Below, one piece after another: positions 8,036 to 48,029 of a DNA stretch of 64,000 nucleotides. The stretch is from an uncultured virus (IMG/VR IMGVR_UViG_2627853864_000004) (lineage: Duplodnaviria; Heunggongvirae; Uroviricota; Caudoviricetes): the IMG/VR virus record IMGVR_UViG_2627853864_000004. One strand, written 5' to 3'. Below the pieces are notes generated by a model. That model was given only the letters and a program-made list of their open reading frames with translations. It ran no database searches and was not told the DNA's origin. The translations under genes were made by a program, and so were the position numbers. Positions within the stretch are counted from its first letter, which is position 1. Each line of letters opens with the position of its first letter.

Positions 8036-10057
8036 GTGAGCTACACCGCCGCGGATGTCATCGAGCTAGACGACATCCAGCACACCCGGATGCGGCCACA
8101 GGTCAACCTCGGTGCGAGGGTCTACCAGACCGCCGCTCGCGAGATCGTCGACAACGCCGTGGAAGAGGCAGGTGCTCACGGGTCCACGGTGTCGATCATC
8201 TTGAGATCCGACGGATCGTTCACCGTCACTGATGACGGTCGGGGCTTACCTGTTGACTCCGACCCGGCCGGAAAGAACGGCGTCGTCAAAACACTGGGCA
8301 CGGCGCGGTCAGGTGGGAAGTTCACCGCGCATGCCGACGCCGAGTCCACCGGTGCCGGCCTCAACGGGATCGGTGCTGCAGCTGCGGTATTCATCTCCCG
8401 ACGCACTGACGTCACCGTGTACCGCGCCGGGAAAACGTACAAGCAGAGCTTTGGTGGTGGGTATCCTGGCCGCTTCGCGGGTGACGGCTTCAATCCCGAC
8501 GCCGACTTCACCCGCGATGACACTCAGAAGCTGCGTGGAGTGTCCAACGGCGAGCCCGCCGTGCACGGCACCTCTGTACGCATGCTGCTCGACCCGTCGG
8601 TGGCCCCCGACACCGCACTCGACATCACCGAGGTTCTGCTGCGTGCCCACGCGGCGGTGCGCATGACCCAAAACGTGCACCTGACCGTGATCGACGAAGG
8701 CTGGCCAAGCGGTCCCCTACCCGCAGCTTTGTTGGGGTCATTCTCCGGGCCTTGGGGTACGAGCGCAGTGCTGGACTTCATGTGTGCCTGCGCGCAGACC
8801 CCCATACCCGCGCTTCGGGCCTCCGTCGAGGGCCGCGGCGAGTACGTGACTGGTCGTGGACCTACGCCGTTTCGCTGGTCGCTGACGGCCGGACCGGCCG
8901 AGCCCGCAACGGTGTCCTCTTTCTGCAACACCGTCTACACCGCTGATGGCGGATCACATCTGAACGCGGCTGTAAAAGGACTGACCGAGGCCCTGGCGTC
9001 CCGCGCCGCGCGGCTGCGCGACCTCGGCCTGGCCAAAGGAGAGGATGGCCCCGAGCCGCAGGACTTCGCCGCGGTCACCGCGCTGGCCGTCGATACCCGT
9101 GCGCCTGATGTCTCCTGGAACGGCCAAGACAAGACCGGAGTGTCGTCACGGTCTCTGAACACGGCAATGTCGACCGACGTGGCACGCAGCACCGCGGTGT
9201 GGTCGGCCAACCCGGCGAACACCGACACCGTGACCATGTGGACGAAACTCGCTCTCGAAGCCGCACGAGCTCGCCGCAGCGCTGAGGGGGCCAAATCCCG
9301 GTCCCGTGCGGCATCTAAAGCCAAGGGGCTGGGGACGAATCTGTCACTGCCGCCAAAGCTGCTGCCCTGCCGTGAAACTGGCCGCGGTTCTGGAGCAGAA
9401 CTGTTCATAGCAGAGGGTGACTCGGCTCTTGGCACCATCAAGGCCGCGCGGGACGCAACGTTCCAGGCAGCGTTCCCGCTCAAAGGCAAACCACCGAACG
9501 TCTACGGGTGGACGGTCGCAAAAGCTCGCGGTAAGGAGGAATTTCAGGCTATCGAGCGGATTCTCGACTGCGGGGTACGTGGCCATTGCGACCCGGAGAA
9601 GTGCCGGTACGACAAGATTCTTTTCGCCTCCGACGCCGATCCCGATGGGGGCAACATCAACTCGTCGCTGATCTCGATGTTCCTCGACTTCTACCGGCCT
9701 CTAGTCGAAGCCGGCATGGTCTACGTCACCCTTCCGCCGCTGTTCGTGGTCTCCGACGGCTCGCAGCGCATCTACTGCCAGGACGACGCCGAACGTGACG
9801 TCGCCGTAGCTCGATTGAGGTCAGGAGGCCGGTCGAGGGTCGAGGTGCAACGCAACAAAGGCCTCGGCGAGATGAACGCCGACGACTTCTGGAACACCGT
9901 GCTGGACCCAGGTCAGCGGACCGTTATTCAGGTACGCCCCGACGACCTCGGCGGCGCACTGCACCACACCTTGTTCGGCGGGACTCCTGAAGGCCGGCGC
10001 ACGTGGATGGCCGACGCCGCTTCGCGCATTGATACCTCGTCCTTGGACCTGGATTAG
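8036..10057 (+). CDS. Type IIA DNA topoisomerase subunit B (GyrB/ParE-like, atypical)
   Basis: GHKL 'EIVDNAVEE', 'DDGRGLP', 'GLNGIG'; TOPRIM 'EGDSA', 'PLKGK', 'DADPDG', 'KGLGEM'. Confidence 0.93.
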   Translation: MSYTAADVIELDDIQHTRMRPQVNLGARVYQTAAREIVDNAVEEAGAHGSTVSIILRSDGSFTVTDDGRGLPVDSDPAGKNGVVKTLGTARSGGKFTAHADAESTGAGLNGIGAAAAVFISRRTDVTVYRAGKTYKQSFGGGYPGRFAGDGFNPDADFTRDDTQKLRGVSNGEPAVHGTSVRMLLDPSVAPDTALDITEVLLRAHAAVRMTQNVHLTVIDEGWPSGPLPAALLGSFSGPWGTSAVLDFMCACAQTPIPALRASVEGRGEYVTGRGPTPFRWSLTAGPAEPATVSSFCNTVYTADGGSHLNAAVKGLTEALASRAARLRDLGLAKGEDGPEPQDFAAVTALAVDTRAPDVSWNGQDKTGVSSRSLNTAMSTDVARSTAVWSANPANTDTVTMWTKLALEAARARRSAEGAKSRSRAASKAKGLGTNLSLPPKLLPCRETGRGSGAELFIAEGDSALGTIKAARDATFQAAFPLKGKPPNVYGWTVAKARGKEEFQAIERILDCGVRGHCDPEKCRYDKILFASDADPDGGNINSSLISMFLDFYRPLVEAGMVYVTLPPLFVVSDGSQRIYCQDDAERDVAVARLRSGGRSRVEVQRNKGLGEMNADDFWNTVLDPGQRTVIQVRPDDLGGALHHTLFGGTPEGRRTWMADAASRIDTSSLDLD

Positions 10058-10069
10058 GAGCTCCACACC

Positions 10070-12199
10070 GTGACTGCCACAGAACAGAACCGCGACCTTG
10101 TGCTCGAGCAGAGCGCCGAGGACTACTGGAACCGATACCAACTCACCTTCGCGCTCTACAGCGTCAGCGATCGTGCGATACCGTCAGCATTCGACGGTCT
10201 CAAACCGGGACAGCGCCGTCTGCTGTACCAGATGCACGCCTCCAAGCTGCTGCCGGGCAACAAGCCGCAGAAGTCGTCGAAGGTCTGCTCGGCGGTTACC
10301 GGCAACCTGCACCCGCACGGAGGTGCAGCGATGTATGGCGCGGCGGCGCTTCTGGCCGCTGACTTCCAGCGCGTCAAAATCATTGACGGACAGGGAGCTT
10401 TCCCGCGCATTCAAGGTGACATACCGGCCGCCGACCGATACACAGAAATGCGCCTGTCCCCAACGGGTGCCGCGCTGACCTCTGAACTCGCAGACCACGC
10501 GGTACCGATGACCGACACGTTCGACGGGGAATGGATTGAGCCGGCCGTGCTGCCGGCGCAATTCCCGTTCCTGCTCTGCAACGGTGCCGTCGGCATCGCC
10601 GAAGGTTGGGCCACCAAGGTTCCCGCACACAATCCTCGCGAGGTAATGGCGGCGTGCCGGGCGCTGCTGGCTGATCCACAGCTATCCGATGACGCGCTTA
10701 TGGAACTGCTGCCTGGTCCCGACTGGGGTTGCGGGGCATCCGTGGTCGGCTCCGACGGGCTGCGCGACTACATCACCACCGGAAAAGGTGCGTTCACCGT
10801 ACGCGGCACGGCGGTGGTCGACGGTAAGACGATCACGATCACTGAGCTTCCGCCCGGTGTTGCCAGTTCCACTGTGCAGGAACGAATCCGTGCTCTAGTC
10901 GAGTCGGGGGAAGCTCCGGGCATAGCAGACATGTCCGACCTAACCGACCGCCGCAACGGACTACGCATTGCAGTCACAGTAAAGCGCGGGCACGATCCTG
11001 AGACGGTGCGTGACCAGCTGCTGGCCCAGACTCCGCTGGAGGGCACGTTCGCCGCCAGCGTGGTTGCGCTTGATGGCGACCGGGTTCCGCGCTGGTGGAC
11101 TGTGCGCGAACTGATCTCGGCGTTTTTGTCCCTGCGTGATTCAGTGGTGTTGCGCCGCAGCGAGTACCGGCTGGAGAAGGTCGAGGCGCGGCGGCACCAG
11201 GTGGCCGGCCTGATGGCGGTGCACTTGGACATCGACGCCGCCGTGGCGATCATCCGCCGCTCCGATACCGTCGACGACGCACGAACTGGGCTGCAAGCGC
11301 GGTTCACGCTTGACGCAGAGCAGGCCGACTACGTACTGGCGATGCAGCTGCGCCGACTGACCCGGCTCGATGTGCTGGAACTGCAGGCTGAATCGAAGAA
11401 GCTGGATGCTGAACACGCCACGCTCACCCGACTGGTCTCGTCACCGACCGAGCGCCGCGCGGTGATCGACAAGGAGCTGGTGGAGACGACAAGATTGTTC
11501 AACGCGCCCGAGTTCGATCGCCGCACGCACCTGGACTTCGATGCTGTTCCGGTGTCCGGTGGGAGCTCCGACGACGGCCCCCGTGAGCGCACGATCAACA
11601 AGAACTGGCGACTCGATGATCGGGGCGTGTTCTCCGACAGTCACGGTGAGTTGCTCTCGAGTGGTCTCGGATGGGCGGTATGGACTGACGGCAGAGTGAA
11701 ACTGACTGACGGCAAAGGCCTGCCGACCAAGACTCGCGACGTTCCAGTCGCCCCAGATATCACCGGGCTGCTGTGCTCCGGAGTGTTGGCCCCCGGTGCG
11801 CACCTCGGACTGATCACCCGACGCGGGAAGGTTTTGCGACTGGATCCCGCGACTGTTAATCCACAGGGCGCCGCCGGCAACGGGGTGGTCGGCGTCAAGC
11901 TGGCGGCCGATGGAGGTGACGCGGTGATTGCCGCGTTCCCGCTCACTGGAGCTGAGTCTGAGGCGATCTTGTCGATCTCAGAGAAGGGCTGGAAAGTCAC
12001 TGCTGTCTGGGATATTCCGCCGAAAGGACGTGGCGGTAGCGGTGTCGGGTTCCATCCGTTCATCAGCGGTGAGAGCATGCTCGTTTCTACAGTCGCCTCC
12101 ACCGCCGGCTTCGTGCGCGACGGAAAACCGGTACGCGCCGAGAAGCGAGCGAAGGCCTCGGTGAAGGGCGCAGCTGCCGGAGTGGATCCGGCGAGCTGA
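10070..12199 (+). CDS. Type IIA DNA topoisomerase subunit A (GyrA/ParC-like, atypical)
   Basis: 'RAIPSAFDGLKPGQRR', 'HPHG', catalytic 'RYTE', 'GIAEGWATKVPAHN', 'LPGPD', 'ITELP'; short divergent CTD; RBS AGGAG. Confidence 0.93.
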   Translation: MTATEQNRDLVLEQSAEDYWNRYQLTFALYSVSDRAIPSAFDGLKPGQRRLLYQMHASKLLPGNKPQKSSKVCSAVTGNLHPHGGAAMYGAAALLAADFQRVKIIDGQGAFPRIQGDIPAADRYTEMRLSPTGAALTSELADHAVPMTDTFDGEWIEPAVLPAQFPFLLCNGAVGIAEGWATKVPAHNPREVMAACRALLADPQLSDDALMELLPGPDWGCGASVVGSDGLRDYITTGKGAFTVRGTAVVDGKTITITELPPGVASSTVQERIRALVESGEAPGIADMSDLTDRRNGLRIAVTVKRGHDPETVRDQLLAQTPLEGTFAASVVALDGDRVPRWWTVRELISAFLSLRDSVVLRRSEYRLEKVEARRHQVAGLMAVHLDIDAAVAIIRRSDTVDDARTGLQARFTLDAEQADYVLAMQLRRLTRLDVLELQAESKKLDAEHATLTRLVSSPTERRAVIDKELVETTRLFNAPEFDRRTHLDFDAVPVSGGSSDDGPRERTINKNWRLDDRGVFSDSHGELLSSGLGWAVWTDGRVKLTDGKGLPTKTRDVPVAPDITGLLCSGVLAPGAHLGLITRRGKVLRLDPATVNPQGAAGNGVVGVKLAADGGDAVIAAFPLTGAESEAILSISEKGWKVTAVWDIPPKGRGGSGVGFHPFISGESMLVSTVASTAGFVRDGKPVRAEKRAKASVKGAAAGVDPAS

Positions 12200-24500: not shown

Positions 24501-24681
24501 TGCGGGCCCCGACTTCGAGCGCGTGCCACGGTCCGATGAGAGTCTTGCCGGTACCGCATGCCATCCGCAGCTGCGCTCGTTCCCCTGCGTCGGCTAGCTC
24601 GTCGAGCGCGGCACGCTGATGCGGACGCGGTTGCGGCACAGCATCACTGATCGGTGAATACCCCTGCAGTAGCGCAGTCAT
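21505..24681 (-). CDS. SF2 DEAH helicase with helicase-associated (HA) repeats and C-terminal Zn-finger/HTH
   Basis: 'ACGTGKT', 'DEAHH', 'TATP', 'EGIDVP', 'QAIGRALR'; Trp-rich HA-like repeats; 'GCRCVVC'. Confidence 0.88.
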   Translation of the reverse strand: MTALLQGYSPISDAVPQPRPHQRAALDELADAGERAQLRMACGTGKTLIGPWHALEVGARTVAVFTPSIALVAQTIAEWRRVVPGVRVLAVCSDPTTDAGRAEIGVDGIDPFEGQHDQDGNVTTRAEVVAGFLERAEKSGASMSLVVSTYHSSQVVADGIGLTRSGRPLDLVVADEAHHLAGRTNAAFLPVLDPRSVLARRRVFATATPIVLKSRGGAEAIDDLSGASAVARSMDDTALFGEIAYTLNVGEAVSAGLLADYRVLVTTTTEPAGEATGERAALAALLDVVRRYGVRRILTFHNRVDSARAFAERVSALIDVDGAPIRALAVDGSMHDSERVKILARLADTRTDGITVVASSQCLREGIDVPAVDAVVFADPRTSQVGIIQAIGRALRKHPGKSHGTIVIPLILDPDADDQDQLSTSSYAHVWRVLQGLRAHDSRIGHDIDRARRTGTHGYIDRDVVDWLEVTGSQPGTIITRLLQRTSSVWERNFQQLCHETDRLGSAARITTQCTALGQWITLQRILFRDGMLDEDRRKRLESVNGWRWGAKEASDERTLDRLRAVCTDRGSLDDTAPGDSIFTGYVDGLNRPLRLWVATQLCRYWDNELDSGIAEALRQMPGWDWYPLSEVDQAGVAAFRSFAAWEGHADVPPGHIEDDIDLDAWLGTVRRRKIYGTLPPILESVLLASTPTGRKGERRFLWKPSETRWQIAEMACHQYIAKHGTLARMPIGTVEDVEGKRFELYQWCAATRSRRKRGDLRPQDGAIERFTGWTWGSPGQGGTDMITGPKPGVTDHSTRGFQQGCRCVVCVTENRSYMRRVASERRATYRADWVSAQDVREHLQGLLALEASKDRSDATFTIGAIAAAACVSRGLVSLLVGRAAEPRCSKLHRRILLDLTADDVRAVRTVQRSRGRQGIRDYNAQVDDPEPTWMLLNQAAAAGWTRQQLTAALGYSSTANTPISGKPVTIAQAKLVHVWFESLDGDLTPPPLPPAKKPGTKKSPTRRNKRVDRAKSVTPDAEAWAKSLVDQGYSVKHAAERSGLPIELVSTLEKVRR

Positions 24682-25580
24682 GCCGCCACCTGCTGCTCGC
24701 CCCGAAGTTTGGCCATCGCCCCTTCAATGAGCCCGCGGACCTTGACGACGGGGAGCCGATACTTGTCTGCGACTTCGGTCACCGACTGCGGCTCTCCCGT
24801 ATCCAGCCCGAACACTTCGGAAATGACTCGCCGCTCGCGATAAGAGAGCCGCTCCATCAACTGCGAAAGCTGCTGGGCAGCACAGTCATGAGCATCATCC
24901 CGGTCGCCACAGTCTCGACCTGCCAGGAGGTCGAGCAGGCTGGAGGCGCCATCGCGACCTCCCTCGCTTAGCGGTGCGTCCAGAGAAACTGCGCGGGACA
25001 TCATGGCGCGCATCTGAGCGATGCCCATTGGGCTGACACCCATCACGGCTGCGAGATCAGCATCGCTAGGCGTCCTACCCAGGTCAGTACCCAGCTGGGA
25101 GGTGACCATGAGCAGTTCCCTGCAACGCTCCTGGTCGCTGGAAGACAGCGCGGCGGGCGTTGCCTTGGCGATCGCTCGCTGTTGATGGAGACGCACCCAA
25201 TGAAGCGCGTACGTGGAGAACTTGAATCCCTGTGTGTAGTCGAATTTTTGAACAGCCCGAATGACGCCGACCATCCCTTCGGCGGTGAGGTCTTCCACTG
25301 TCAGCAACGCACTGGCGCCCCTTACCGCCCGCTTACGCGCCCACCACGCGGAGAGCCGAACATTCGCGGTCACGAAATGCTCGAATGCTGCTCGACCGTC
25401 CGCAGCGACCAATCTCAACTGTGCCGGGGTGTACGGCGAGGCTCCCTTGGCGAGTAGGAACTGTGCGTACAAGCCGGCCTCTATCCGCTTGGCAAGCTCC
25501 ACTTCTTGCTCCGCGGTCAACAACTCGGGCAGATCCTTGGGAAGATCCGTCTGCTTCACTAAATGCATGGCCGTGCTCAC
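24678..25580 (-). CDS. Sigma-70 family RNA polymerase sigma factor (SigA/SigB-like, divergent)
   Basis: Region 1.2 'LLTAEQEVELAKRIEAG'; region 2 'RAVQKFDYTQGFKFSTYA'; region 4 'LSYRERRVI..FGL'. Confidence 0.88.
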   Translation of the reverse strand: MSTAMHLVKQTDLPKDLPELLTAEQEVELAKRIEAGLYAQFLLAKGASPYTPAQLRLVAADGRAAFEHFVTANVRLSAWWARKRAVRGASALLTVEDLTAEGMVGVIRAVQKFDYTQGFKFSTYALHWVRLHQQRAIAKATPAALSSSDQERCRELLMVTSQLGTDLGRTPSDADLAAVMGVSPMGIAQMRAMMSRAVSLDAPLSEGGRDGASSLLDLLAGRDCGDRDDAHDCAAQQLSQLMERLSYRERRVISEVFGLDTGEPQSVTEVADKYRLPVVKVRGLIEGAMAKLRGEQQVAA

Positions 25581-25735: not shown

Positions 25736-26784
25736 AGCGACCACTGATCCGGCATGCACGGCGTCTCCCCCAGCGGCACAACGATCTCATCCTCGTCGCC
25801 ACCCACGTACTCATCGCAGCGCTGATCGCCCTGTTGTTCATCACCTTCGTGGTATTCGTGATCACCATCGGGTTCGTCGTCCAACTCACCGAACGACACC
25901 ACGACGCCGAACGTCGGACGTGGCTTATTCCTCTCTCGGCGGGCGTATTCGTCGGACGCCTCGAAATCAGGCACCGTACGGATATGCTCAATCACCGCGT
26001 CCGAGATCTGCTCACCGTCGTGACGAGCGGCGACCGTCAGGCGACACACCCGCATCTTCTGCGCGTTGTGATCGGCGGGCACCGACACCACATCGGCCGG
26101 GTCCACCAACACCACCAGCATCTGCTCGCTGAAATCGCTGGCATAGCTGTAGGTTCCGACATGCAGGCCCACCGAGCACGCCGAGTGCCTGTCTGGGTTG
26201 ACCAGATCACGGTCCATCCACACCGTCGCACCGACCGGGTACGGAATGTTCCCGGTGATGGTCTCGCTGGTGCCGTCCTGGTGGACCACCGTCACCGCCT
26301 CACGACCGGCGTGCGCCGAGAAGCCATCGTTGCGTACCGACTTGTAGCCGACGATCAGCCCGTCGGTGGTCAGCACGAAGCCTCCGGCCTTGAGCCAGCC
26401 GAACAGCTGTGAGCGCGACGCGGCCGACGGGTTCCGCTCCAGACGGCGAAGGAACGCCCCCAGTGGTGCCATGTCGGCGGTCTCGCGGGCAAGCCGCAGC
26501 GCGGTAGACAGCACTGTCTCGGCCACCGGGTCACCGTGAGTGACCCGATAGGCGTCATCGGCGTCGTCGTCGTTGCCGTCCACTACCGACACCGCCTCGG
26601 CGACGGCTGCTTTCACGGTGACCCGAACCACCTCCACCAGGCTCTTGACAGTGGCGAAGTCCTGGCCGTGGTCATCAACGAGGTAGGTCCGCACGTTCTG
26701 GTAGGCGGGGTCGGCAGAGCCGACCATCACGGTGTCATCGCCTTCGGTGACGATGATGGAGTTGGCGTCGATGAATGCGCGCAT
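25732..26784 (-). CDS. T4 rIIB-like protein
   Basis: 'LTTDGLIVGYKSV', 'ACSVGLHVG..YA', 'VDPADVVSVP.D...KMRVCR'; acidic tail. Confidence 0.85.
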   Translation of the reverse strand: MRAFIDANSIIVTEGDDTVMVGSADPAYQNVRTYLVDDHGQDFATVKSLVEVVRVTVKAAVAEAVSVVDGNDDDADDAYRVTHGDPVAETVLSTALRLARETADMAPLGAFLRRLERNPSAASRSQLFGWLKAGGFVLTTDGLIVGYKSVRNDGFSAHAGREAVTVVHQDGTSETITGNIPYPVGATVWMDRDLVNPDRHSACSVGLHVGTYSYASDFSEQMLVVLVDPADVVSVPADHNAQKMRVCRLTVAARHDGEQISDAVIEHIRTVPDFEASDEYARRERNKPRPTFGVVVSFGELDDEPDGDHEYHEGDEQQGDQRCDEYVGGDEDEIVVPLGETPCMPDQWSL

Positions 26785-31909: not shown

Positions 31910-34111
31910 TCAACTCGCGCGGCCGTACTCGTCGACACGGTTCCCCTGCCGGTCGACAAGCTGATACTCCTGCCACGGTTCCAGCTCTGGGGCGCGTCCG
32001 TCACGCAGATGCTCGACAGTGACCGGGATCGGTGTCCGAGGCAGGTCACCGCGGCACTGTCGCAGCCTGATCGCGGTACGAACGCTCTTGTCCGACACCA
32101 GGAACCCGCCATGGTTGACGGGGAAGTCGCGCTGTACCCATGCCCCGCCCTCGATGCGGCACCAACGCTGCTTGGCCGCCTCGATCGCCAGCAGCGCTCC
32201 GCGTTCGATCATGCGCAGCACGGTTCGTTCACTGACACCGAGGTGGTTGGCCGTGTCATTGACAGTCTGGTTGTAGCCACCGAACCGCCTGTGCTTGATC
32301 GTTCGATACGGCCGGACCGTCTGCCGGTAGCGCACCAAACCGGGGCCGTAAACCTCGCTTTCATGCAATCGATGGTTCCCCGACCCGAAGCGCACCGCGT
32401 GCAAGGTTCCGATCCTGGCCAGATAGCGAACCTCAGATGCGGGTCGCTCGACAATCTGGGCGGCCTGGTCAAAAGTGAGGTATTCCGCGGTGACGCTGCG
32501 CCGTTGACGCGGATCACCGATCCTCAGCTTCGGGCACATCCGCGCCACCTTGGCACTGAACACCCCTGCCGCAACCAGATCGACGGTGCGGATCCGAAGA
32601 TCGCGGCCGCGGCGCTGGGCCGGCAGCAGCCCTTCGGCGACAAGCGCCTCGATGACATTCGGTCGGGTGCCGGCGAACGTAGCCGCGCTGGAACGCGTGT
32701 GCAGTGCCAATGCGGGGTCGATGTCGGGTTGGCTCCACTTCAGCCACGCCAGGAAGTTCTCCACGTGCGCATCGGTCAGATTCGCACCCCGTTCAGCAGC
32801 GGCGCGACGGCGGTCGCAAGCCTCGGCGGCGCGTGCTGGTTTGGCGGCCTGGGCGGCAACGAGCGCATCCACCTCGTGGCGCCGTAACCACAGCTTGGAT
32901 CCGGAGGTGACTATTTCGAGCTTGCCAGCAGCGGCACGGCGGCGCAGGGTGCGTACGGTTACACCGATCTTGTCGGCAGCCATCGCGATCGGCACCAGCA
33001 GTGGGTCCTTCATCAAGCCACCGGGCGGAAGGCCCCGAGACTTGCGGATCTTGTCGCTGCGCAGCTGGAGCACAGCGAACAAGTCGTCTTGACAGACCCG
33101 CGTCGTCCCAGCAATGGTCCAGGTGATGGCCCCTCCGCGCTGCAGCGCCTTGCGGGTCCCTGAGGTACTGATCCCCATCATCGAGGCAGCATCCGCCATA
33201 GTGAAGCACTGCAGGCCCGATACCTGGTCGCGGATCATCCTGTTTTTGCGCCGAAGCAGGCCGGGAGCGACACCATCGGTTCGGCGGCGGTTCTCGGCGA
33301 TCGCCGCGCGGACTTCGGCGTCGATGCGATACGCCTCCTCGAAATAGATGCGGCGCAGCGAGGATTTCTTGTAAGGAATCCCCCACACCATCAGGATGTC
33401 TTCCGGGACCATTGCCCGTTCACGCCGACCCACACAGCGCCACATCAAATTGCGCGGCTTCATATCCGGGTTGGCCTTGGCAAACCTGCGCCACCACCGC
33501 CACATCGTTTGCGGATGCAACCGCAAGATGCGGGCCACCTCCTCGGCAGGCACACCGCGGTCGAGTGCTCCGCGAGGGCGGTTGGTGGCCCAGCCGCAGC
33601 CCATCTCTGGAGGCAGACCTGCCGCCAAGATGTTGCCCATCGCCCACACGTAGTCCGATCGGATACGGATCGTTCCGAACATCCGCAACGCGGGCAGTCC
33701 CCCTCCCAGGGTCATGCGGCGCACCCGCTCCCTCCCCAATCCCAGCTGAGCGGCTGTCTCAGCGAGGGTGAGCATGCGGACCGGCTGGTTGTGGCACGCG
33801 GGATAGAAACCGCGGTCCGGGTTCGGAGTGCCCAGCAAGGCGTCGATCTCGCGGACCCGATCGTCTGGCAGCGGTTCGGCTTCCAGATCCCGGCCCGGGT
33901 AGAGCAGCTCAGTGACCAGTGTCCGGTCGTCGACTGACGGCGGGGCGGGCACCTCGAGCCGCGTCTGCTGCTCTTGCTGCTCGTCGTAGGCCGCCATCGC
34001 TGTCATGGACTGCAGCATCATCTGGCGTTCTTCGGGGGTCAGGCCTTCGCACGCGGAACGTAGCCACTCGGGCAGCTCGTCGAAGTCGCACTGGGTGTAG
34101 TCCGCGGCCAT
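31910..34111 (-). CDS. Multi-HTH (about seven MerR/excisionase-type wHTH repeats) DNA-binding protein
   Basis: Repeats such as 'LTLAETAAQLGLGRERVRR', 'FTMADAASMMGIS', 'IAMAADKIGVTVRTLRR', 'LTFDQAAQIV', 'QTVNDTANHLGVSERTVLR'; start uncertain. Confidence 0.8.
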   Translation of the reverse strand: MAADYTQCDFDELPEWLRSACEGLTPEERQMMLQSMTAMAAYDEQQEQQTRLEVPAPPSVDDRTLVTELLYPGRDLEAEPLPDDRVREIDALLGTPNPDRGFYPACHNQPVRMLTLAETAAQLGLGRERVRRMTLGGGLPALRMFGTIRIRSDYVWAMGNILAAGLPPEMGCGWATNRPRGALDRGVPAEEVARILRLHPQTMWRWWRRFAKANPDMKPRNLMWRCVGRRERAMVPEDILMVWGIPYKKSSLRRIYFEEAYRIDAEVRAAIAENRRRTDGVAPGLLRRKNRMIRDQVSGLQCFTMADAASMMGISTSGTRKALQRGGAITWTIAGTTRVCQDDLFAVLQLRSDKIRKSRGLPPGGLMKDPLLVPIAMAADKIGVTVRTLRRRAAAGKLEIVTSGSKLWLRRHEVDALVAAQAAKPARAAEACDRRRAAAERGANLTDAHVENFLAWLKWSQPDIDPALALHTRSSAATFAGTRPNVIEALVAEGLLPAQRRGRDLRIRTVDLVAAGVFSAKVARMCPKLRIGDPRQRRSVTAEYLTFDQAAQIVERPASEVRYLARIGTLHAVRFGSGNHRLHESEVYGPGLVRYRQTVRPYRTIKHRRFGGYNQTVNDTANHLGVSERTVLRMIERGALLAIEAAKQRWCRIEGGAWVQRDFPVNHGGFLVSDKSVRTAIRLRQCRGDLPRTPIPVTVEHLRDGRAPELEPWQEYQLVDRQGNRVDEYGRAS

Positions 34112-34276
34112 GGGCGTCAACGTAATGGCCACACGCGGAGGCGCTTTCCTGCGACGCGGGGCACGCCGAGCAGCCGACAAAATCACAACACGCTCGAACA
34201 GGTTTTCGACAGGCCGGTTCTCGTGTCCGGTTCCTGTTTCCGTCTGGATTTGTCGGATGTAAATTGTCCCGGCCGC

Positions 34277-34635
34277 GCTGAACCTCCCCGTACTTCGATG
34301 TAAATTACCCGTTTGACCTGTGGTAACTGTCAAGGTTCTGGTTAATTCACTGCTCAGCTGGGCAAACACGCAACTGTCGTGGGAATGGGGGGTGCCTCCG
34401 GCAGCGGATATTCTCTGTTTCAGAGAGAGTGCAGGTAAAGATATGTATCTAGAACAACTAACTAATGAGCTTTCACCTATAGACCCTGTTGCCCCTGTCA
34501 CGCCGGGTTGTCCGAGGCACCCCCCATTCCCACGACAGCTACGCATTGCTGCAGGTGAACCGAAAAGTCACCGATTTACTGACAGTTACCGCAGGTCAAA
34601 TGGGTAATTTACCGCGAAACTCGGGGAGGTCCAGC
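34277..34635. repeat. Large non-coding dyad: nested inverted repeats with a common axis; candidate origin
   Basis: Imperfect 56-bp arms 34277-34332/34580-34635; perfect 25-bp arms 34374-34398/34514-34538; both centred at 34456; AT-rich core. Confidence 0.85.
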
Positions 34636-34869
34636 TAGCAGCGAACCGCAGCGAAGACGAACACCCGAGTAGGCGTTCGAGCATTTGGAACTGGTCGTGC
34701 TGGCATGCACTTGCGCCTCATGAACGAGCACTAGCGGAACCTTGGTGCAGTGGCGGTCCAGAGCCCGGTCTGCGCATCCTGGATGGTGGATGGATCAGTA
34801 ATCGCACCGGCCCGGAGGGTGGCGAAACCGCCCAGTCCGGTGGCGTGGCCCGCCGGCGCCCGGATCAGG

Positions 34870-35277
34870 TCAGTTCACGAGCAGCTGCGCTGAGTCCCAT
34901 GGTGTGGCTTCGGTGGCCGCCTCGACCAGATTGCCGTCGGCGTCGAAGCCTACGAACAGGGTTCCGATCTTGCCGCTGGAGCTGGCGGTCACCGTCGCCC
35001 GCCCGCCCGTGCGAGCGCTGACCAGCGACGGGGAGCTGTCGTCGAGGATCATGAAATCTGTCCCGGCGAACCGGACCCGCTTGGCCACCAGCGACGCTGG
35101 CGCCACGCCTTCACGCTCTTCGCGCTGCACGTCCGACCAGATCTTTCGGAGACCGACGACGATTGCGGCCGCTCCCCCAAACACGAGCCAGGTCGGGCCG
35201 CCTTCAGAAAAGTAGAAGGCCACCGCGAGCAGACCAACGCTTGTGAAGAGTGCACCGCCGGGGTCGTGCTGTTTCAT
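34870..35277 (-). CDS. Hypothetical membrane protein
   Basis: RBS AAAGGAG; two N-terminal hydrophobic helices. Confidence 0.65.
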   Translation of the reverse strand: MKQHDPGGALFTSVGLLAVAFYFSEGGPTWLVFGGAAAIVVGLRKIWSDVQREEREGVAPASLVAKRVRFAGTDFMILDDSSPSLVSARTGGRATVTASSSGKIGTLFVGFDADGNLVEAATEATPWDSAQLLVN

Positions 35278-35959: not shown

Positions 35960-36210
35960 ATCCGGCCGACGTAGCTATCACTTAGGACGCACCACTAATC
36001 ACGGCTTCAGCAATATCTTCACGATACCGACACCGGTCGCTAAGAGAGGCACCCCTCGGGTGATCGCCGTTCACTCTGTTCATCGATCGCTGGAATGCGG
36101 TTGCCGACAGGAGAACCAGGCGTCCCGCACGTTCGAACTGCCCCATCTGCCGACCGGGGCTGCACTTGGCCGGCTGAGTGATCGGTGTCGCGGTTGCGGA
36201 TCGGCAATCC

Positions 36211-36349: not shown

Positions 36350-36907
36350 GTGGAAGCCCTCACCCCGAACACGGCCAAGCTGCGGGGACTGTCGCGCAGC
36401 GCGCTCTACCGCCTCGCGAACGACGGACGGATGGACCGCATCGCACGGGGGATCTACCTGCCCGTTAACGCGCCGGCTGCCGACTGGGACCAACTCGAAG
36501 CCGCGACCCGACGTACCGACGCGACGATCTGCCTGACGTCTGCTCTCGCCTATCACGACTTGACCGACGCGATCCCCTCCACGCTGGACGTCGCGATCCG
36601 GCGAGGGGCGCGCCCACCGGCCAGCACAGGTGCCATCACGTGGCACCTGTTCGATCGGGACACGTTCGACATTGGCCGCGAGCAGATCACGATCGCCGGA
36701 TCGGACCAAACGATCGGGATCTATTCCCCGGAACGCTCGATCGCCGACGCGTTCCGCCTCCGCGGCGAGGTCGGACACGAGCTGGCACGCGATGCGTTGC
36801 GCGAATGGCTGCGCCGCGGTGGAAAGCCCGCGCGGTTGATCGACATCGCGACCCGGCTTCCGAGGGCCAAGACCCCCGCTCTGCGCGCGCTGGAGATGTT
36901 GGGTTGA
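36350..36907 (+). CDS. abiEi: Type IV TA antitoxin, AbiEi family
   Basis: 'GLSRSALYRL..GRMDRIARGIY', 'ICLTSALAYHDLTDAIP', 'YSPERSIAD'. Confidence 0.88.
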   Translation: MEALTPNTAKLRGLSRSALYRLANDGRMDRIARGIYLPVNAPAADWDQLEAATRRTDATICLTSALAYHDLTDAIPSTLDVAIRRGARPPASTGAITWHLFDRDTFDIGREQITIAGSDQTIGIYSPERSIADAFRLRGEVGHELARDALREWLRRGGKPARLIDIATRLPRAKTPALRALEMLG

Positions 36908-37755
36908 GCGACGGCGACAAGGTGTTCCGCCGCATCCAGTCCGCCGCCCGCTCGGCCAAGGACAGGGGCGGCCCCGCCGCGCCGACCCAGGAGTACTTGA
37001 TCCGTCATGTTCTCGAGTCGTTCCTGGACCGGCTCACCCGCACGCCGCACGCCCGTGACTTCATCCTCAAAGGCGGGATCCTATTGGCCGCCTACGGTGT
37101 TCGCCGACCGACGAAGGACGCTGACGCTAACGCTGCCAGCGCCGACGTCACCGCGCAGCACCTCGTCGACGTGGTCCGCGATATCGCCGCTGTGGCCGTC
37201 GACGACGGAGTCGTCTTCGACATCGACGCAATCACCGTTCAGGACATCCGCGAGCAAGCCGAATACCCCGGCTTGCGCGTGCGGGTTCCTGCGACGATCG
37301 GTCGGTGGAAAGGCGTAGCGCTGTGGGACGTTTCCACCGGTGACCCGGTCGTTCCGGCGCCCCGGCCGGTGACCATCGAGCGGATTCTCGGCGACCCGAT
37401 CACGCTGCTCGGCTACGCCGCCGAGACCAGCATGGCCGAGAAGGGCGTGACGATCCTCGAGCGCGGCATCACCAGCACCCGCTGGCGGGACTATGTCGAC
37501 ATAGTCGCGCTCGGTCGGGCGGGCTTCGACGAGGCGGAGCTTCTGCGCGCGGCCCGGGCCGTCGCGGGATACCGAAGGGTTGTGCTCGGTCCGGTTGCTC
37601 CGCTCCTGGAGGGCTACGGCGCAGTGGGACAGGCGAAGTGGGCCGCGTGGCGGCGCAAGGAGGGCGTCGAGTCCCTCTGCGAGGAGACCCTCGATGACCA
37701 GGCCGCCCTGGTCGCAGCCTTCCTCGACTCCACCTTCTCCCTCGGCCCCGGGTAA
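36904..37755 (+). CDS. abiEii: Type IV TA toxin, AbiEii/AbiGii nucleotidyltransferase
   Basis: TTG start overlapping abiEi stop; 'FILKGG', 'RPTKDAD', 'AEK', 'TRWRDYVD'. Confidence 0.88.
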   Translation: MSDGDKVFRRIQSAARSAKDRGGPAAPTQEYLIRHVLESFLDRLTRTPHARDFILKGGILLAAYGVRRPTKDADANAASADVTAQHLVDVVRDIAAVAVDDGVVFDIDAITVQDIREQAEYPGLRVRVPATIGRWKGVALWDVSTGDPVVPAPRPVTIERILGDPITLLGYAAETSMAEKGVTILERGITSTRWRDYVDIVALGRAGFDEAELLRAARAVAGYRRVVLGPVAPLLEGYGAVGQAKWAAWRRKEGVESLCEETLDDQAALVAAFLDSTFSLGPG

Positions 37756-43112: not shown

Positions 43113-44453
43113 TTAGTGGTCATTGTTGTCATCGAGTTCTTTGCGGATGAGTTGGATCTGCCCCGAGTCGATCGCCTTCTGGATATCGGGATCGTTGATC
43201 TGTGTCCGGTGGTCCACGACCAGGGTCATGGTGTAGCCCTCTTCTTGGGCAAACTGAAGTTCCTTCAATATCTGGGTCTTGTACGGCCTAATTTCATTCG
43301 TGTTCTTGACCTCGACGACATTCTGGTTTTCGTCATCGATGTAATCCGGTTCGATCAGCGAAGGGACGCCGTTATATGTGATCGGTACCCTGCGTTTTTC
43401 GTGTGGTGGAATGCCGGCCCGCTCTTCGCCTTGTTCACCGGCTTTCCTGTTCTCTTCGTCGCTGCGATTGCGCACCGGGTTTGTTTGTCGCGGTGTGCGG
43501 TCGAGTATCGACGACAGCAGCTGGGTACTCGTCGTCGCTGTCGTATAAATCCCCTTGTTGGACTCCGCTGCGGTGTTGACCGCGCCGTTGATGCCGTCGA
43601 TGAGCGCATCCATGGCGCGGGCATAGTCGCGCTTGTTCTTTTCGATCAAATTGTCGAGAAGCCGTACAAGCCAACCCGCTCTGATGCGTCGGGCTCCGAT
43701 CTTGTCGACCTCGTAGGAGAAGACGATCGCGTTCAGAATCTGCAAACTCTGACGGCCGGTGCGTTTGTCGATATCGGCAACGCGGTGCACCTCCTGGCAT
43801 GCAGCACCCAGCGCGATGCCCATATCACCCGCGTCGCTCAGGGCCCGGTAGACGTTGGCGACTTCGTCGACCATGCCGTCGACCTCGGGGCTTTGGTCTT
43901 GGGCGGCTTGGGTGAATACACCCAATACATCGGACCTCAACGTGGCAGCGGTCGCCTTCGTTGTATTCCCATACGTGGTGAAGTGCGTTCCCGCAGTGCC
44001 GATTCGACTTTCGTCGCAGTCAGCCCACTGCTTGGTGACATACTTTTCGATCAGATCCCAGTGGGCTGGCTTCTCGTGAGTGCCTCCCACCGCATGTTTG
44101 GCGGGGTGCAGATTGGTGGCCAGCGACGACCCCTGCGGATGTGGCGGTGTCGGTTGCACACCTGTGCCTCCGCTGGATCCGTTCTCAACATCGGCATGAT
44201 TCAGTCCGGATTGATGGACCAGATAGCCGAGTTCACGTGCCGCAATCGATGTCGTGGATGCCATCTCGAAGACGTCGGAGGCGGATTGGTCAAAGCTGAT
44301 CGCCCACACCGGCCCGCCGCTGTCGTAAGTGCCCGCGCTCTGGCTGACGTCCAGTTTGTTGTCCAGATCCTTGAGCGCGGTCTCCAGAGTCTTCGAGAGC
44401 TCGCATAACTTCGCTGCGACCGCGTAGTAGTCCTCGGGAGTAACTTTCGTCAT
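43113..44453 (-). CDS. T7SS polymorphic toxin: WXG100-like N-terminus + PD-(D/E)xK (Tox-REase-like) C-terminus
   Basis: 'KVTPEDYYAVA...SAGTYDSGG..W...FD'; 'WADCD'; C-terminal 'IEPDYID...VVEVKN...TQI'. Confidence 0.8.
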   Translation of the reverse strand: MTKVTPEDYYAVAAKLCELSKTLETALKDLDNKLDVSQSAGTYDSGGPVWAISFDQSASDVFEMASTTSIAARELGYLVHQSGLNHADVENGSSGGTGVQPTPPHPQGSSLATNLHPAKHAVGGTHEKPAHWDLIEKYVTKQWADCDESRIGTAGTHFTTYGNTTKATAATLRSDVLGVFTQAAQDQSPEVDGMVDEVANVYRALSDAGDMGIALGAACQEVHRVADIDKRTGRQSLQILNAIVFSYEVDKIGARRIRAGWLVRLLDNLIEKNKRDYARAMDALIDGINGAVNTAAESNKGIYTTATTSTQLLSSILDRTPRQTNPVRNRSDEENRKAGEQGEERAGIPPHEKRRVPITYNGVPSLIEPDYIDDENQNVVEVKNTNEIRPYKTQILKELQFAQEEGYTMTLVVDHRTQINDPDIQKAIDSGQIQLIRKELDDNNDH

Positions 44454-44462
44454 GAACCTGGC

Positions 44463-44750
44463 CTATCCCAGCATTTCCACGTTCTTGCGTTGTGCCTCGG
44501 CGTAGTTCGCCCGAGCGTCCGCAACGAAGACTCGGTGGGCTTGCAGAGTGTCGAGGTGCTGCTGCAGCGAGGCCTGCCACCGGTCGTGGGACTGGGTGAA
44601 GGCTGTCGCCGCGGTACCCGAGTAGTGCTCACCGATTGATGCCACAGTCGCTTTCGCGCCGTCGCGGTGGGCCGAGAGCTCCTCAATCGAGCGATCAATC
44701 AGCTCGACGAATTCGTCGAGCTGATTCAGGTCGTATTGATATGTCGGCAC
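44463..44750 (-). CDS. WXG100 family protein
   Basis: 95 aa; 'HYSGTAATAF...W'; 'ANYAEA'. Confidence 0.8.
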   Translation of the reverse strand: MPTYQYDLNQLDEFVELIDRSIEELSAHRDGAKATVASIGEHYSGTAATAFTQSHDRWQASLQQHLDTLQAHRVFVADARANYAEAQRKNVEMLG

Positions 44751-47898: not shown

Positions 47899-48029
47899 AG
47901 GACTAAGGCATCACTCAAAACTGATACTAGCTAGAACTGATACAGGGGTCGACGTGGCCGTTCTCTGAAGCTTGACCGCAGGCCGCGCCGCGCTCGTCCA
48001 ACACCCCTTGGCCAGCTCACACTCGCGTT

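Follow-up and report, generated by a model that had tools for sequence, protein, structure and literature searches.

Control networks in which one element-encoded protein addresses many palindromic sites in promoter regions are exemplified by the KorB OB sites of IncP plasmids and by the dispersed centromere/operator sites of N15. These networks include a site at the binder's own operon, their sites measure 13–30 bp, and their binders are of the ParB type. Palindromic origins with an AT-rich centre are found in herpes simplex (oriL and oriS) and among archaeal origins with inverted ORB elements, and the Frpo hairpin has a length of ~330 nt. Small proteins of the Xis/HTH_17 fold control promoters through arrays of AT-rich binding sites; the excisionase-like winged-helix regulators with such operator arrays include RdfS, Apl of phage 186, and Gp36 of mycobacteriophage D29. 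BldC of Streptomyces has the consensus AATTXXXX(C) and binds several AT-rich sites side by side, with distortion of the DNA and regulation of promoters (PMC5859096). Among giant linear plasmids, those of M. avium carry terminal inverted repeats of ~415 bp (PMC12803027).

The dyad in the 64,000-nucleotide window (the whole stretch of DNA that was analysed) looks like a shared control region and not like a single replication origin. It may represent one copy of a cis-regulatory cassette in the backbone of rare giant (at least ~250 kb) ESX-bearing Mycobacteriales elements, which carry 3–4 such copies each, in intergenic positions before a gene for a protein of seven HTH units (the seven-HTH gene), a RuvC-like nuclease operon, an XRE-type regulator, and others.

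The geometry proposed by the sequence-only reading, with coaxial arms, a common midpoint and an AT-rich centre, is borne out by a repeat finder and by the GC values. The outer arms (34277–34332 and 34580–34635) are 56 nt long, 86% complementary and separated by 247 nt, the inner arms (34340–34403 and 34509–34572) are 64 nt long and 73% complementary, and both pairs have their midpoint at 34456. The GC content falls from 64.2% in the window to 51.8% in the dyad, 45.7% in the segment between the arms (34404–34508) and 27% in the AT-rich stretch (34437–34473). The limits that had been given, 34277 to 34635, are correct for the arms and too narrow for the repeated unit, as the extent of similarity between copies (located by nhmmer and BLAST), together with a closing helix formed by CTCGAAC (34193–34199) and GTTCGAG (34675–34681) around unequal flanks of the dyad, define a full unit of ~489 bp. 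The extension beyond the dyad is asymmetric, and contains a third copy of a GTAAATT..CCC box. As a single strand, the segment 34190–34685 folds with −234.9 kcal/mol (z −10.85) on the plus strand and −246.0 kcal/mol (z −14.10) on the minus strand; for either strand, no fold of this stability arose in 100 dinucleotide shuffles. The features are as follows.

31910–34111, minus strand: gene for the seven-HTH (Xis/HTH_17-like) protein, 733 aa, starting 165 nt past the left outer arm
34193–34681, minus strand: the repeated cassette in full, 489 bp; its sense strand, towards the seven-HTH gene, is the minus strand of the window
34257–34273, no strand assigned: third GTAAATT..CCC box, in the gene-proximal extension; direct repeat D1, without mirror partner, conserved in 8 Mycobacterium copies
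34277–34332, no strand assigned: outer left arm, with a CCTCCCC box, the GTAAATTACCC box, and box 2, TTTGACCTGTGGTAACTGTCA (34312–34332); the boxes are kept in all four lineages
34374–34398, no strand assigned: inner left arm, perfect 25-mer CTGTCGTGGGAATGGGGGGTGCCTC within the 64-nt inner pair; holds box 3, GTCG..G-run..CCTC, of which GTCG, the G-run and CTC are preserved in all lineages
34404–34508, minus strand: asymmetric non-palindromic core, AT-rich at 34437–34473, with a conserved minus-strand motif, TTAGTTAGT..CTAGaTACAT, and a local hairpin around 34410–34430
34514–34538, no strand assigned: inner right arm, reverse complement of the 25-mer
34580–34635, no strand assigned: outer right arm, mirror of the left arm, with box 2 at 34580–34600
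34870–35277, minus strand: putative membrane protein, 135-aa ORF, GC3 0.79; ends 234 nt before the right outer arm

The neighbouring gene encodes seven HTH units, as the sequence-only reading had it. All seven segments of ~65 aa match Pfam HTH_17 (E 5.5e-6 to 0.076), with only one of them passing the curated cut-off on its own, and the whole protein matches with E 7.4e-29; the closest solved relative is the mycobacteriophage excisionase Xis Gp37 (4J2N, E 0.017). The most likely start of the gene is 34111 rather than 34546, which places the dyad upstream of the gene and not inside it. Proteins of this type are very rare, as a word-based search among 5.8 billion, covering proteins of 403–1283 aa, returned only 3 clusters, and those of different lineages share only 32–44% identity. 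On the other side, the 135-aa ORF matches no Pfam family. A small ORF from 34444 (MYLEQLTNELSP...) was rejected as coding, for a 1-nt indel breaks its frame in other copies and it is absent from Tsukamurella.

Copies of the cassette occur in four lineages. The nearest genome in the collection carries 3 of them on one 217.6-kb contig (the C19 contig), which may be mis-binned or mobile, given an assembly of 4.1 Mb (85% complete) in a genus with genomes of 2–3 Mb; none of 60 relatives of that genome has the cassette, and a lone 30-nt match (E 8.8e-4) is noise. The two named Mycobacterium genomes G062 and G063 have exactly 4 loci each, the further Mycobacterium lineages G727 and G521 have 3 and 4, and Tsukamurella G299, reached only via the seven-HTH protein, has 4. 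Within a genome the copies are 92–96% similar in three Mycobacterium lineages and 75–83% in Tsukamurella, and no copy lies outside the giant element in the genomes of 6.3–7.6 Mb examined. An origin of the palindrome by telomere fusion was dropped, the copies being internal and having an asymmetric conserved core. Among 401 family genomes, the seven-HTH protein was found only in G062 and G299, and the dyad in the same two; a loose pattern scan of this set gave matches in 80 genomes, of which G062 (24) and G299 (22) stand out, the other 78 having 1–6 two-mismatch matches, about the level of a reversed-pattern control. Among 400 scored genomes of the genus, six encode the protein; the dyad of G062 and G063 was known before that scan, and the four newly found carriers (G675, G613, G727 and G521) all have the dyad at the gene. 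As protein and cassette ride on one mobile element, their co-occurrence reflects linkage and is not independent evidence. A BLASTN search of 34100–34900 against plasmid and phage collections gave no match, and in metagenome contigs none of 166 candidates from a protein-pattern scan was confirmed and the DNA pattern had no match. Genome G203, promising in the scan, is not a carrier, and six single-arm loci outside Mycobacterium from a contig scan have no similarity to the cassette.

The tie between dyad and seven-HTH gene, suggested from the window alone, is stronger than that reading could know: each of the eight genomes that encode a homologue has the cassette immediately upstream of that gene and oriented alike. 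A second copy precedes the operon of the RuvC-like nuclease (Pfam RuvC, 29.5 bits against a cut-off of 22.2; tblastn identities 51–74%) in all four lineages, and these two positions are orthologous across the lineages. In 11 of 15 loci from the four lineages, a supported gene start on the same strand follows ~120–330 nt beyond the same arm. Divergent genes flank the c1-type loci of G727, G521 and Tsukamurella, and the Tsukamurella copy Ts_3 lies beside PolA; on the C19 contig, the stretch upstream of PolA that is orthologous to the Ts_3 site lacks the cassette and contains no more than a 21-nt palindrome. Ahead of copy c3 lies the 3' end of a convergent gene, and this copy is antisense to both neighbouring genes; copy c2 has no supported gene start within 1.3 kb, and no paralogy was found among the genes that flank c2 and c3. 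Copy c1 is opposite in strand to c2, c3 and c4, the copies of G299 are divided two against two, and in G062 a single replicon carries c1 and c4, each with a clear downstream gene, on opposite strands.

The sequence has drifted from lineage to lineage, and the three arm boxes and the asymmetric AT-rich core are still conserved. The boxes TGACCTGCG..AC.G.CA and GTCG..G-run..CTC are kept across lineages along with the core motif, and the core, whose orientation-specific motif is common to the four lineages, varies least among the 8 Mycobacterium copies. That the boxes persist in spite of the low identity of the seven-HTH proteins is sequence conservation beyond pairing, which fits recognition by a protein. 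The observed copy number, conserved position, orientation, boxes and linkage to the gene are the basis on which we tentatively read the cassette as a promoter/operator shared by the members of a small regulon of backbone genes, with the seven-HTH protein as its probable binder; judged from sequence, we give this reading somewhat less than an even chance. The asymmetric core would carry the directional signal, a promoter or start region, and the mirrored arms would present three conserved duplex boxes at ~±65, ±140 and ±170 bp from the centre to a sequence-specific DNA-binding protein. The likeliest binder would be the adjacent protein of seven excisionase-like winged-helix units, which would then regulate its own gene, and binding on both sides of the core may wrap or loop the DNA and switch the 3–4 units together. 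Such control would be exerted on double-stranded DNA. By eye, the GTAAATTACCC and GTAAATTGTCCC boxes resemble the AT-rich sites of excisionase-like proteins, a putative regulator gene adjoins the cassette and is co-inherited with it in all eight genomes, and the position of several copies between divergent genes suits a symmetric operator. Against a promoter/operator stand the results of a promoter/terminator scan of 34000–35000, which predicted no sigma-70-type promoter on either strand, and the inspection of the core by eye, which found no conserved TANNNT hexamer. The convergent 3' end before c3 and the lack of a near gene start at c2 count against it as well, as do two structural observations: the closing helix around unequal flanks is more like a folded single strand, and a covariation specific to Ts_3 (GTTCCC to CGCGCC in both arms) is not predicted by a shared binding specificity. 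Covariation of the arms outside the conserved boxes and the surplus of G.U pairs on the sense strand, both detailed below, weigh against it too. The scan of 34000–35000 gave no terminator either.

The same covariation and closing helix are in favour of a structured leader RNA, in which each copy would lie in the 5' leader of the downstream operon as a 360–490-nt hairpin and serve as attenuator or antiterminator, RNase III processing site or stabiliser, with the boxes recognised in the stem. Beyond the conserved boxes, 31 of 125 arm pairs are changed on both sides, compared with 9.7 in shuffles (0 of 500 reaching the observed count) and 8–15 in slid controls. In addition to the orientation kept towards the downstream gene at 11 of 15 loci, all 3 copies of the C19 contig fold more stably as the sense strand (−246, −247 and −253 against −235, −229 and −223 kcal/mol), as do all 4 of G521, by ~35 kcal/mol. 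The sense strand also has more G.U pairs than the antisense strand in three of the four lineages (window copy 17:9; Tsukamurella 20:6 and 9:12; G521 18–22:4–9); G727, however, has no sense bias (11–13:11–18), and there the antisense strand folds better. Metatranscriptome contigs from two runs of two studies cover 34449–34953 (the upstream flank and the 5' arm), with none over 33600–34283, which would fit transcription that enters the hairpin and is then largely stopped or processed there; yet such contigs show neither the RNA strand nor its ends, and they break at repeats. Pairing is broken by 8 of 16 recent substitutions among the Mycobacterium paralogues, c3 would be transcribed antisense to both its neighbours, the TACGTT hexamer seen by eye 7 nt before the ATG of the window gene would suit a leaderless mRNA that excludes the hairpin, and strict sequence conservation of the duplex boxes is unusual for a purely structural RNA. 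Nor does the window match any Rfam 15 family at gathering scores; with the limit relaxed to E 1, the sole hits are the hairpin of a plant miRNA precursor, at 29.5 bits where 150 would be required, and a fragment of an lncRNA. A leader RNA, in line with the long hairpin RNA among the alternatives of the sequence-only reading, is a doubtful reading, though one with a real share of the probability. The folded strand might instead be DNA, as a signal used after conjugative entry, either a hairpin promoter or a priming site of Frpo/ssi type, allowing early gene expression or complementary-strand priming before the DNA is double-stranded. The element is of conjugative type, with ESX EccB/EccC, FtsK-like ATPases, and SLT and NlpC/P60 hydrolases, the hairpin is similar in size to Frpo, and box 2 holds a −35-like hexamer, TTGACC, although by eye no lineage has a −10 at a workable spacing after it. 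The occurrence of several copies ahead of genes parallels the description of Frpo in leading regions (PMC11541004), but Frpo-type signals act on the transferred strand only (PMC11541004), whereas the cassettes lie on both strands and are spread over ~240–270 kb without clustering in a single leading region. We consider such a single-strand signal very unlikely.

A role in replication, with the seven-HTH protein as an initiator that would bind the arms and open the core, is likewise unlikely, if less so; the copy at its own gene would be an origin, and the others would act as additional origins or control copy number, in the manner of palindromic viral origins or of iteron control loci. An AT-rich stretch, as expected of the unwinding element of an oriV, is present between the mirrored conserved boxes, the DNA-binding protein gene adjoins in all eight genomes, other copies stand beside the RuvC-like operon (four of four lineages) and the divergent PolA of Tsukamurella, and genes for a PolA, a primase-helicase, type II topoisomerase subunits and a ligase are part of the element itself, with which an unusual mode of initiation is conceivable. 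The single bidirectional oriV that the sequence-only reading had offered as defining the replicon is nonetheless contradicted by the 3–4 copies per element, as against one locus per replicon for a theta-type oriV, by the orientation fixed relative to genes, and by the lack of iterons (the sole direct repeat is a chance-like 17-nt pair) and of DnaA boxes; in a scan of the whole window for DnaA-box-like 9-mers with at most one mismatch, none of the 19 matches, itself a chance count, lies in the cassette. Cumulative GC skew, which that reading had named as a check, has no inflection at any copy in the window, the 217.6-kb contig or the 302-kb Tsukamurella record, a result of little power with a skew so weak and noisy. 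The gene for a Prim-Pol/DUF3987 primase-helicase, ~34 kb away, is a conventional replication candidate, and no copy lies beside it. We regard as improbable to a similar degree that the giant element is self-replicating and uses the cassettes as multiple palindromic sites for initiation or processing, the core being opened by the seven-winged-helix protein or the cruciform cut by the RuvC-like resolvase; such multi-site initiation or resolution, if true, would be virus-like, and undescribed for a bacterial plasmid or ICE. A recombination or structure-specific site, whether a cruciform that this resolvase would cut or pair, an invertible promoter or a homology island for module exchange, has little probability in our view, although a recombination site was also among the alternatives of the sequence-only reading. 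It could draw on the RuvC-like gene next to one copy in all four lineages, on the synteny of the window with an M. syngnathidarum record, which ends ~60 bp past the cassette, and on the orthologous c3 locus, where the cassette is ~11% and the flanks 2–3% diverged, as expected if copies exchanged, but exchange at repeats can be a by-product of similarity. In one contig of the metatranscriptomes (depth 3.1), 34322 is joined to 34591 with a change of strand, exactly as an inversion between the outer arms would produce; a lone RNA joint, however, can be a reverse-transcription artefact at an inverted repeat, a probable DNA run (X8) has no such joint, the 2–3 assemblies compared agree in the orientation of the core at each of the 4 loci, and no recombinase gene is adjacent. 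A selfish foldback repeat (MITE) without function for the element, finally, is unlikely in the extreme. The sequence-only reading had named a dispersed MITE with target-site duplications as the case that would overturn it, and the cassette is indeed a dispersed, intergenic, hairpin-forming repeat of 450–490 bp; duplications, on the other hand, are found at no copy, the ends are ragged with boundaries that differ among copies, the copy number is constant at 3–4, all copies are inside the giant element, two positions are orthologous across four lineages, and the cassette matches nothing else on the contig, IS copies included.

Giant ESX-bearing mycobacterial plasmids and integrative elements are only now being described, and the cassette is a testable handle on their control circuits: a cis element of 3–4 sites whose positions are kept across Mycobacterium and Tsukamurella, always paired with a rare seven-domain protein. 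If that protein binds the cassette, the pair would constitute a new architecture for coordinating the backbone genes of a mobile element, and a natural 'pre-assembled' filament of Xis/BldC type. Should the hairpin instead work as an RNA or serve as a site of initiation, its size and copy logic would be unusual for either class.

With the herpes simplex and archaeal ORB origins the cassette shares mirrored boxes, an AT-rich centre, more than one copy per genome, and a location in promoter regions near replication genes; it is far longer, its direction is fixed to genes, and initiation is here only one of the readings. MITEs and REP/ERIC repeats are also intergenic, dispersed and hairpin-forming, whereas the cassette lacks target-site duplications, is confined to one mobile element in 3–4 copies, keeps orthologous positions from genus to genus, and has a single protein gene linked to it. 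The Frpo/ssi signals (PMC11541004) are alike in being long imperfect hairpins that recur ahead of genes on a conjugative element; the cassettes differ in lying on both strands, in having no −35/−10 pair in the stem, and in not clustering in a leading region. Dispersed palindromic sites in promoter regions and one element-encoded DNA-binding protein, here a putative binder, are shared with the KorB OB and N15 networks; the cassette measures hundreds of base pairs, the ParB-type binder belongs to those networks, and among the part of the element's ORFs that was scanned, none is of the ParA or ParB family. The BldC, Apl, Gp36 and RdfS systems resemble this locus in the HTH_17/Xis-like units of the adjacent protein and in the GTAAATT..CCC boxes, which are similar to the BldC unit. 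Those regulators consist of one small domain each and form oligomers on short direct repeats, whereas here seven units are fused in one 733-aa protein, and its putative operator is a nested inverted repeat of 360–490 bp with an asymmetric core, present 3–4 times per element.

The nested inverted repeat, or dyad, at 34277..34635 is borne out as the sequence-only reading gave it: both arm pairs are coaxial at midpoint 34456, and the AT-rich core has a GC content of 27%, that of the window being 64.2%. The dyad lies within a longer repeated unit, the cassette (34193-34681), which is closed by the helix CTCGAAC/GTTCGAG, and whose gene-proximal flank is the longer one and bears a third GTAAATT..CCC box.

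Arms of the dyad and boxes conserved within them
34277-34332 / 34580-34635: outer arms, 56 nt, 86% complementary (repeat finder)
34340-34403 / 34509-34572: inner arms, 64 nt, 73% complementary (repeat finder)
34374-34398 and 34514-34538: perfect 25-mer and its complement (sequence reading)
Box 1, arms: CCTCCCC/TCGTCCC
Box 2, arms: (G)AAgTT.CCC box, then TGACCTGCG..AC.G.CA
Box 3, arms: GTCG..G-run..CTC

In the arm alignment these three duplex boxes are kept in all lineages, and the stretches between them match poorly from arm to arm. The centre is non-palindromic. Its motif points the same way in every lineage (TTAGTTAGT..CTAGtTACAT.T in Mycobacterium, TTAGCAAGAGTAATTACATGTATCT in Tsukamurella), and a local hairpin whose sequence varies comes after it; across the eight Mycobacterium copies, conservation of the cassette is highest in the core. 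Folded as a single strand, 34190-34685 reaches -234.9 kcal/mol on the plus strand (z -10.9) and -246.0 kcal/mol on the minus strand (z -14.1), energies matched by none of 100 shuffles of either strand.

Contig C19 (217,607 bp) of G001, the nearest genome in the collection searched, carries the window sequence plus three IS insertions not in the window. It holds three dyad copies, which match the query over 359 nt at identities of 100%, 94% and 94%; a fourth paralogue, c4, is located outside this contig. Similarity between copies extends over ~455-490 bp, with ragged ends and unrelated flanks, and no target-site duplications were found at the copies compared. A pattern made from two arm boxes matched 14 loci, eight of them in Mycobacterium syngnathidarum 27335 and Mycobacterium sp. 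48b, each of which has the cassette at exactly four places; one locus matches the window copy at 100% identity. The other six loci, from unrelated taxa, have no similarity to the cassette and were rejected as copies. The sole homologue of the seven-HTH protein in the plasmid collection comes from Tsukamurella tyrosinosolvens (34% identity); a diverged nested dyad lies upstream of its gene, a second copy lies 64 kb off, and the corresponding genome, G299, has four. A protein-alignment search found the seven-HTH gene in 6/400 genus genomes, and in all four new carriers (G675, G613, G727 and G521) the cassette is directly upstream of the gene in unchanged orientation, with three copies in G727 and four in G521. 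Among 401 sampled family genomes, the dyad occurs in just the two that hold the seven-HTH protein. Nucleotide searches of phage and plasmid collections gave no cassette match, no cassette or protein match was confirmed in the metagenome contigs searched, and none of 60 examined relatives of G001 has the cassette. The copies of G299, G727 and G062 (one of the two named Mycobacterium genomes) sit within multi-megabase contigs.

We note that G001 is 4.1 Mb (85% complete), the other 20 sampled genomes of its genus being 2.0-3.1 Mb and free of the cassette (0/20), and that C19 shows the mycobacterial hallmarks PPE, ESX and 19-kDa lipoprotein; the contig may be mis-binned in G001, or may be mobile DNA in another host. 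Its three insertions (1,397, 1,656 and 1,657 bp, at window 26127-26135, 35995-36000 and 47899-47907) have breakpoint flank overlaps of 9, 6 and 9 bp, resembling target-site duplications; one encodes a DDE_Tnp_1_4 transposase, and the two of 1.66 kb are 79% alike. By their gene content, the window and C19 represent an element of Mycobacteriales that is a giant plasmid of conjugative type or ICE-like.

Gene classes on the window and contig C19
ESX components (EccB, EccC-like ATPases), PPE and WXG100 proteins
SLT and NlpC/P60 hydrolases
Restriction-modification and toxin-immunity genes
Replication and expression set: PolA, Prim-Pol/DUF3987, GyrA/GyrB-like subunits, ligase, sigma factor, WhiA-like proteins

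For a plasmid or ICE, the gene set is unusually self-sufficient: the products encoded at window 4255-5556, 8036-12199 and 24678-25580 and C19 193484-196243 and 9315-12302 include a WGR-PARP protein, GyrB- and GyrA-like subunits, a sigma-70-family factor of the element's own, a family A DNA polymerase, a Prim-Pol/DUF3987 protein, two WhiA-like proteins, a WGR-ligase and a Thg1-like enzyme. In addition, window 43113-44750 has what looks like a module for a nuclease toxin secreted by ESX: a WXG100 gene and, after it, the gene of a 446-aa protein whose C-terminal domain is Tox-REase-7. Elsewhere on C19 are Tox-REase-5 and GH-E nucleases with Imm33 immunity genes.

All 15 loci examined, from four lineages (window lineage, G727, G521 and Tsukamurella), are intergenic, and at 11 of them a supported same-strand gene starts ~120-330 nt past the same arm.

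Genes downstream of cassette copies
Seven-HTH gene (31910..34111, minus strand, in the window): four lineages
RuvC-like gene, then PD-(D/E)XK-like gene: four lineages (Pfam RuvC 29.5 bits; tblastn 51-74% identity)
XRE regulator gene: G727
170-aa gene and 610-aa gene: Tsukamurella

For copy c2 the closest same-strand gene is 1.3 kb away, and two G521 loci have only short putative ORFs nearby. Copy c3 faces the 3' end of a convergent gene on one side, and its other arm is 149 nt upstream of an opposite-strand gene, the strands of both neighbours being backed by the codon-position substitution pattern. The copy at the seven-HTH gene has a divergent 284-aa gene as its other neighbour in G727, G521 and Tsukamurella. 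In the window lineage, ~6 kb of apparent cargo separates it from the homologue of that 284-aa gene; this cargo includes an AbiEi antitoxin/AbiEii nucleotidyltransferase toxin pair (36350-37755). Synteny between the window and L048, an M. syngnathidarum record, ends ~60 bp past the cassette (34740 onward); the seven-HTH gene, which lies at the opposite end of the cassette, has 95% identity. Borders between modules may be marked by cassettes. Downstream of the Tsukamurella copy Ts_4 (record L096:947-4606) are two paralogous large proteins with the common N-terminal motif ..ARRIRD.Y.IPLTA.KSIA.AL.., the second having an FtsK/SpoIIIE P-loop (27.6 bits); homologues of both were sought on C19 and none was found.

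The most likely start of the large ORF at 31910-34546 is 34111 (MAADYTQ...), which places the dyad 165 nt upstream of the seven-HTH gene. The seven HTH units proposed from sequence hold up, as each of the seven protein segments matches HTH_17, weakly by itself. The best solved relative is the mycobacteriophage excisionase 4J2N (E 0.017), and the family is very rare (3 clusters among 5.8 billion in a word-based search of 403-1283 aa). Read by eye, a TACGTT hexamer ends 7 nt before the ATG (34097-34111, minus strand) and a Shine-Dalgarno sequence is absent, so the mRNA may be leaderless; unlike this gene, the RuvC-like gene of c4 has GGGAG before its ATG.

Copies are 92-96% identical within genomes of the window lineage, 93-95% within G727 and G521 and 75-83% within Tsukamurella, against 70-79% of aligned columns between lineages, where orthologous copies are no nearer each other than non-orthologous ones. 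For the orthologous c3 locus, divergence is ~11% in the cassette and 2-3% in the flanks. The copies thus exchange sequence or are otherwise kept alike inside an element. Both sides have changed in 31/125 predicted arm pairs, versus 9.7 +/- 2.5 in shuffles (0/500) and 8-15 pairs with slid partners; Ts_3 alone altered three adjacent pairs in both arms, and recent differences between Mycobacterium paralogues broke the pair in 8/16. In a long quasi-palindrome, arm-to-arm template switching or conversion can also produce co-variation, which therefore shows that complementarity is maintained, not which molecule folds.

The two strongest readings, which are mutually compatible, are a double-stranded promoter/operator cassette and a giant hairpin in leader RNA. 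The promoter/operator cassette is our tentative choice, held at somewhat less than even confidence. A protein would recognise the boxes mirrored on either side of a directional AT-rich core, and the obvious candidate is the always adjacent seven-wHTH protein. Sequence-level box conservation, invariant gene linkage and sites ahead of a few backbone operons, often between divergent genes, favour this choice, as does the behaviour of related small wHTH proteins (PMC5859096). A leader-RNA hairpin, possible but less probable, draws on the fixed orientation, the closing helix, copy-specific co-variation and a G.U bias to the gene-sense strand in three of four lineages (sense versus other strand: window lineage 17:9; G521 18-22 versus 4-9; one of two Tsukamurella copies 20:6, the other 9:12), G727 having no sense bias (11-13 versus 11-18).

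The single oriV of the sequence-only reading is not supported, given 3-4 copies per element in fixed orientation to genes and a cassette with no iterons or DnaA-box-like sites; the GC skew, weak and noisy, has no inflection at any copy. A conventional replication candidate, the Prim-Pol/DUF3987 primase-helicase gene, is ~34 kb off and has no copy next to it. Initiator-binding or origin sites of some kind are improbable. A recombination or cruciform site is more doubtful still, and equally so is an Frpo-like single-strand DNA signal, against which copies occur on both strands. Least credible is a MITE, since the copies lack duplications, are confined to the element, are fixed in number and are orthologous in position across genera. 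What probability remains belongs to something outside these readings.

Sixteen runs from several studies contain most of the 1.7-kb query stretch as DNA, or probably DNA. Four runs were mapped: two metatranscriptomes (two studies), one probable DNA run and one raw-read run, from which no read mapped. Both metatranscriptomes have contigs over 34449-34953 at depth 3-21, a stretch from the core through the right arm and the spacer upstream of it into the 3' end of the upstream ORF, and none over 33600-34283 (left flank and seven-HTH gene start); as these contigs carry no strand or end information and break at repeats, the expression data are a lead only. A contig of metatranscriptome X19 (depth 3.1) links 34322 to 34591 on opposite strands. 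This joint, not found in the probable DNA run, may be an outer-arm inversion junction or a reverse-transcription (cDNA) artefact at the inverted repeat.

No Rfam family matches the cassette, and a non-exhaustive, keyword-level literature survey on Frpo/leading regions, mycobacterial conjugative plasmids with inverted repeats and excisionase/BldC-type tandem HTH proteins gave no description of the cassette or of a seven-fold fused Xis-like protein. In sum, systems of this kind, in which a palindromic control site recurs across a mobile element that also encodes the protein binding it, are already known; no precedent is known for the size, the nesting about an asymmetric core, the constant set of 3-4 copies kept alike in each element or the seven-domain partner.
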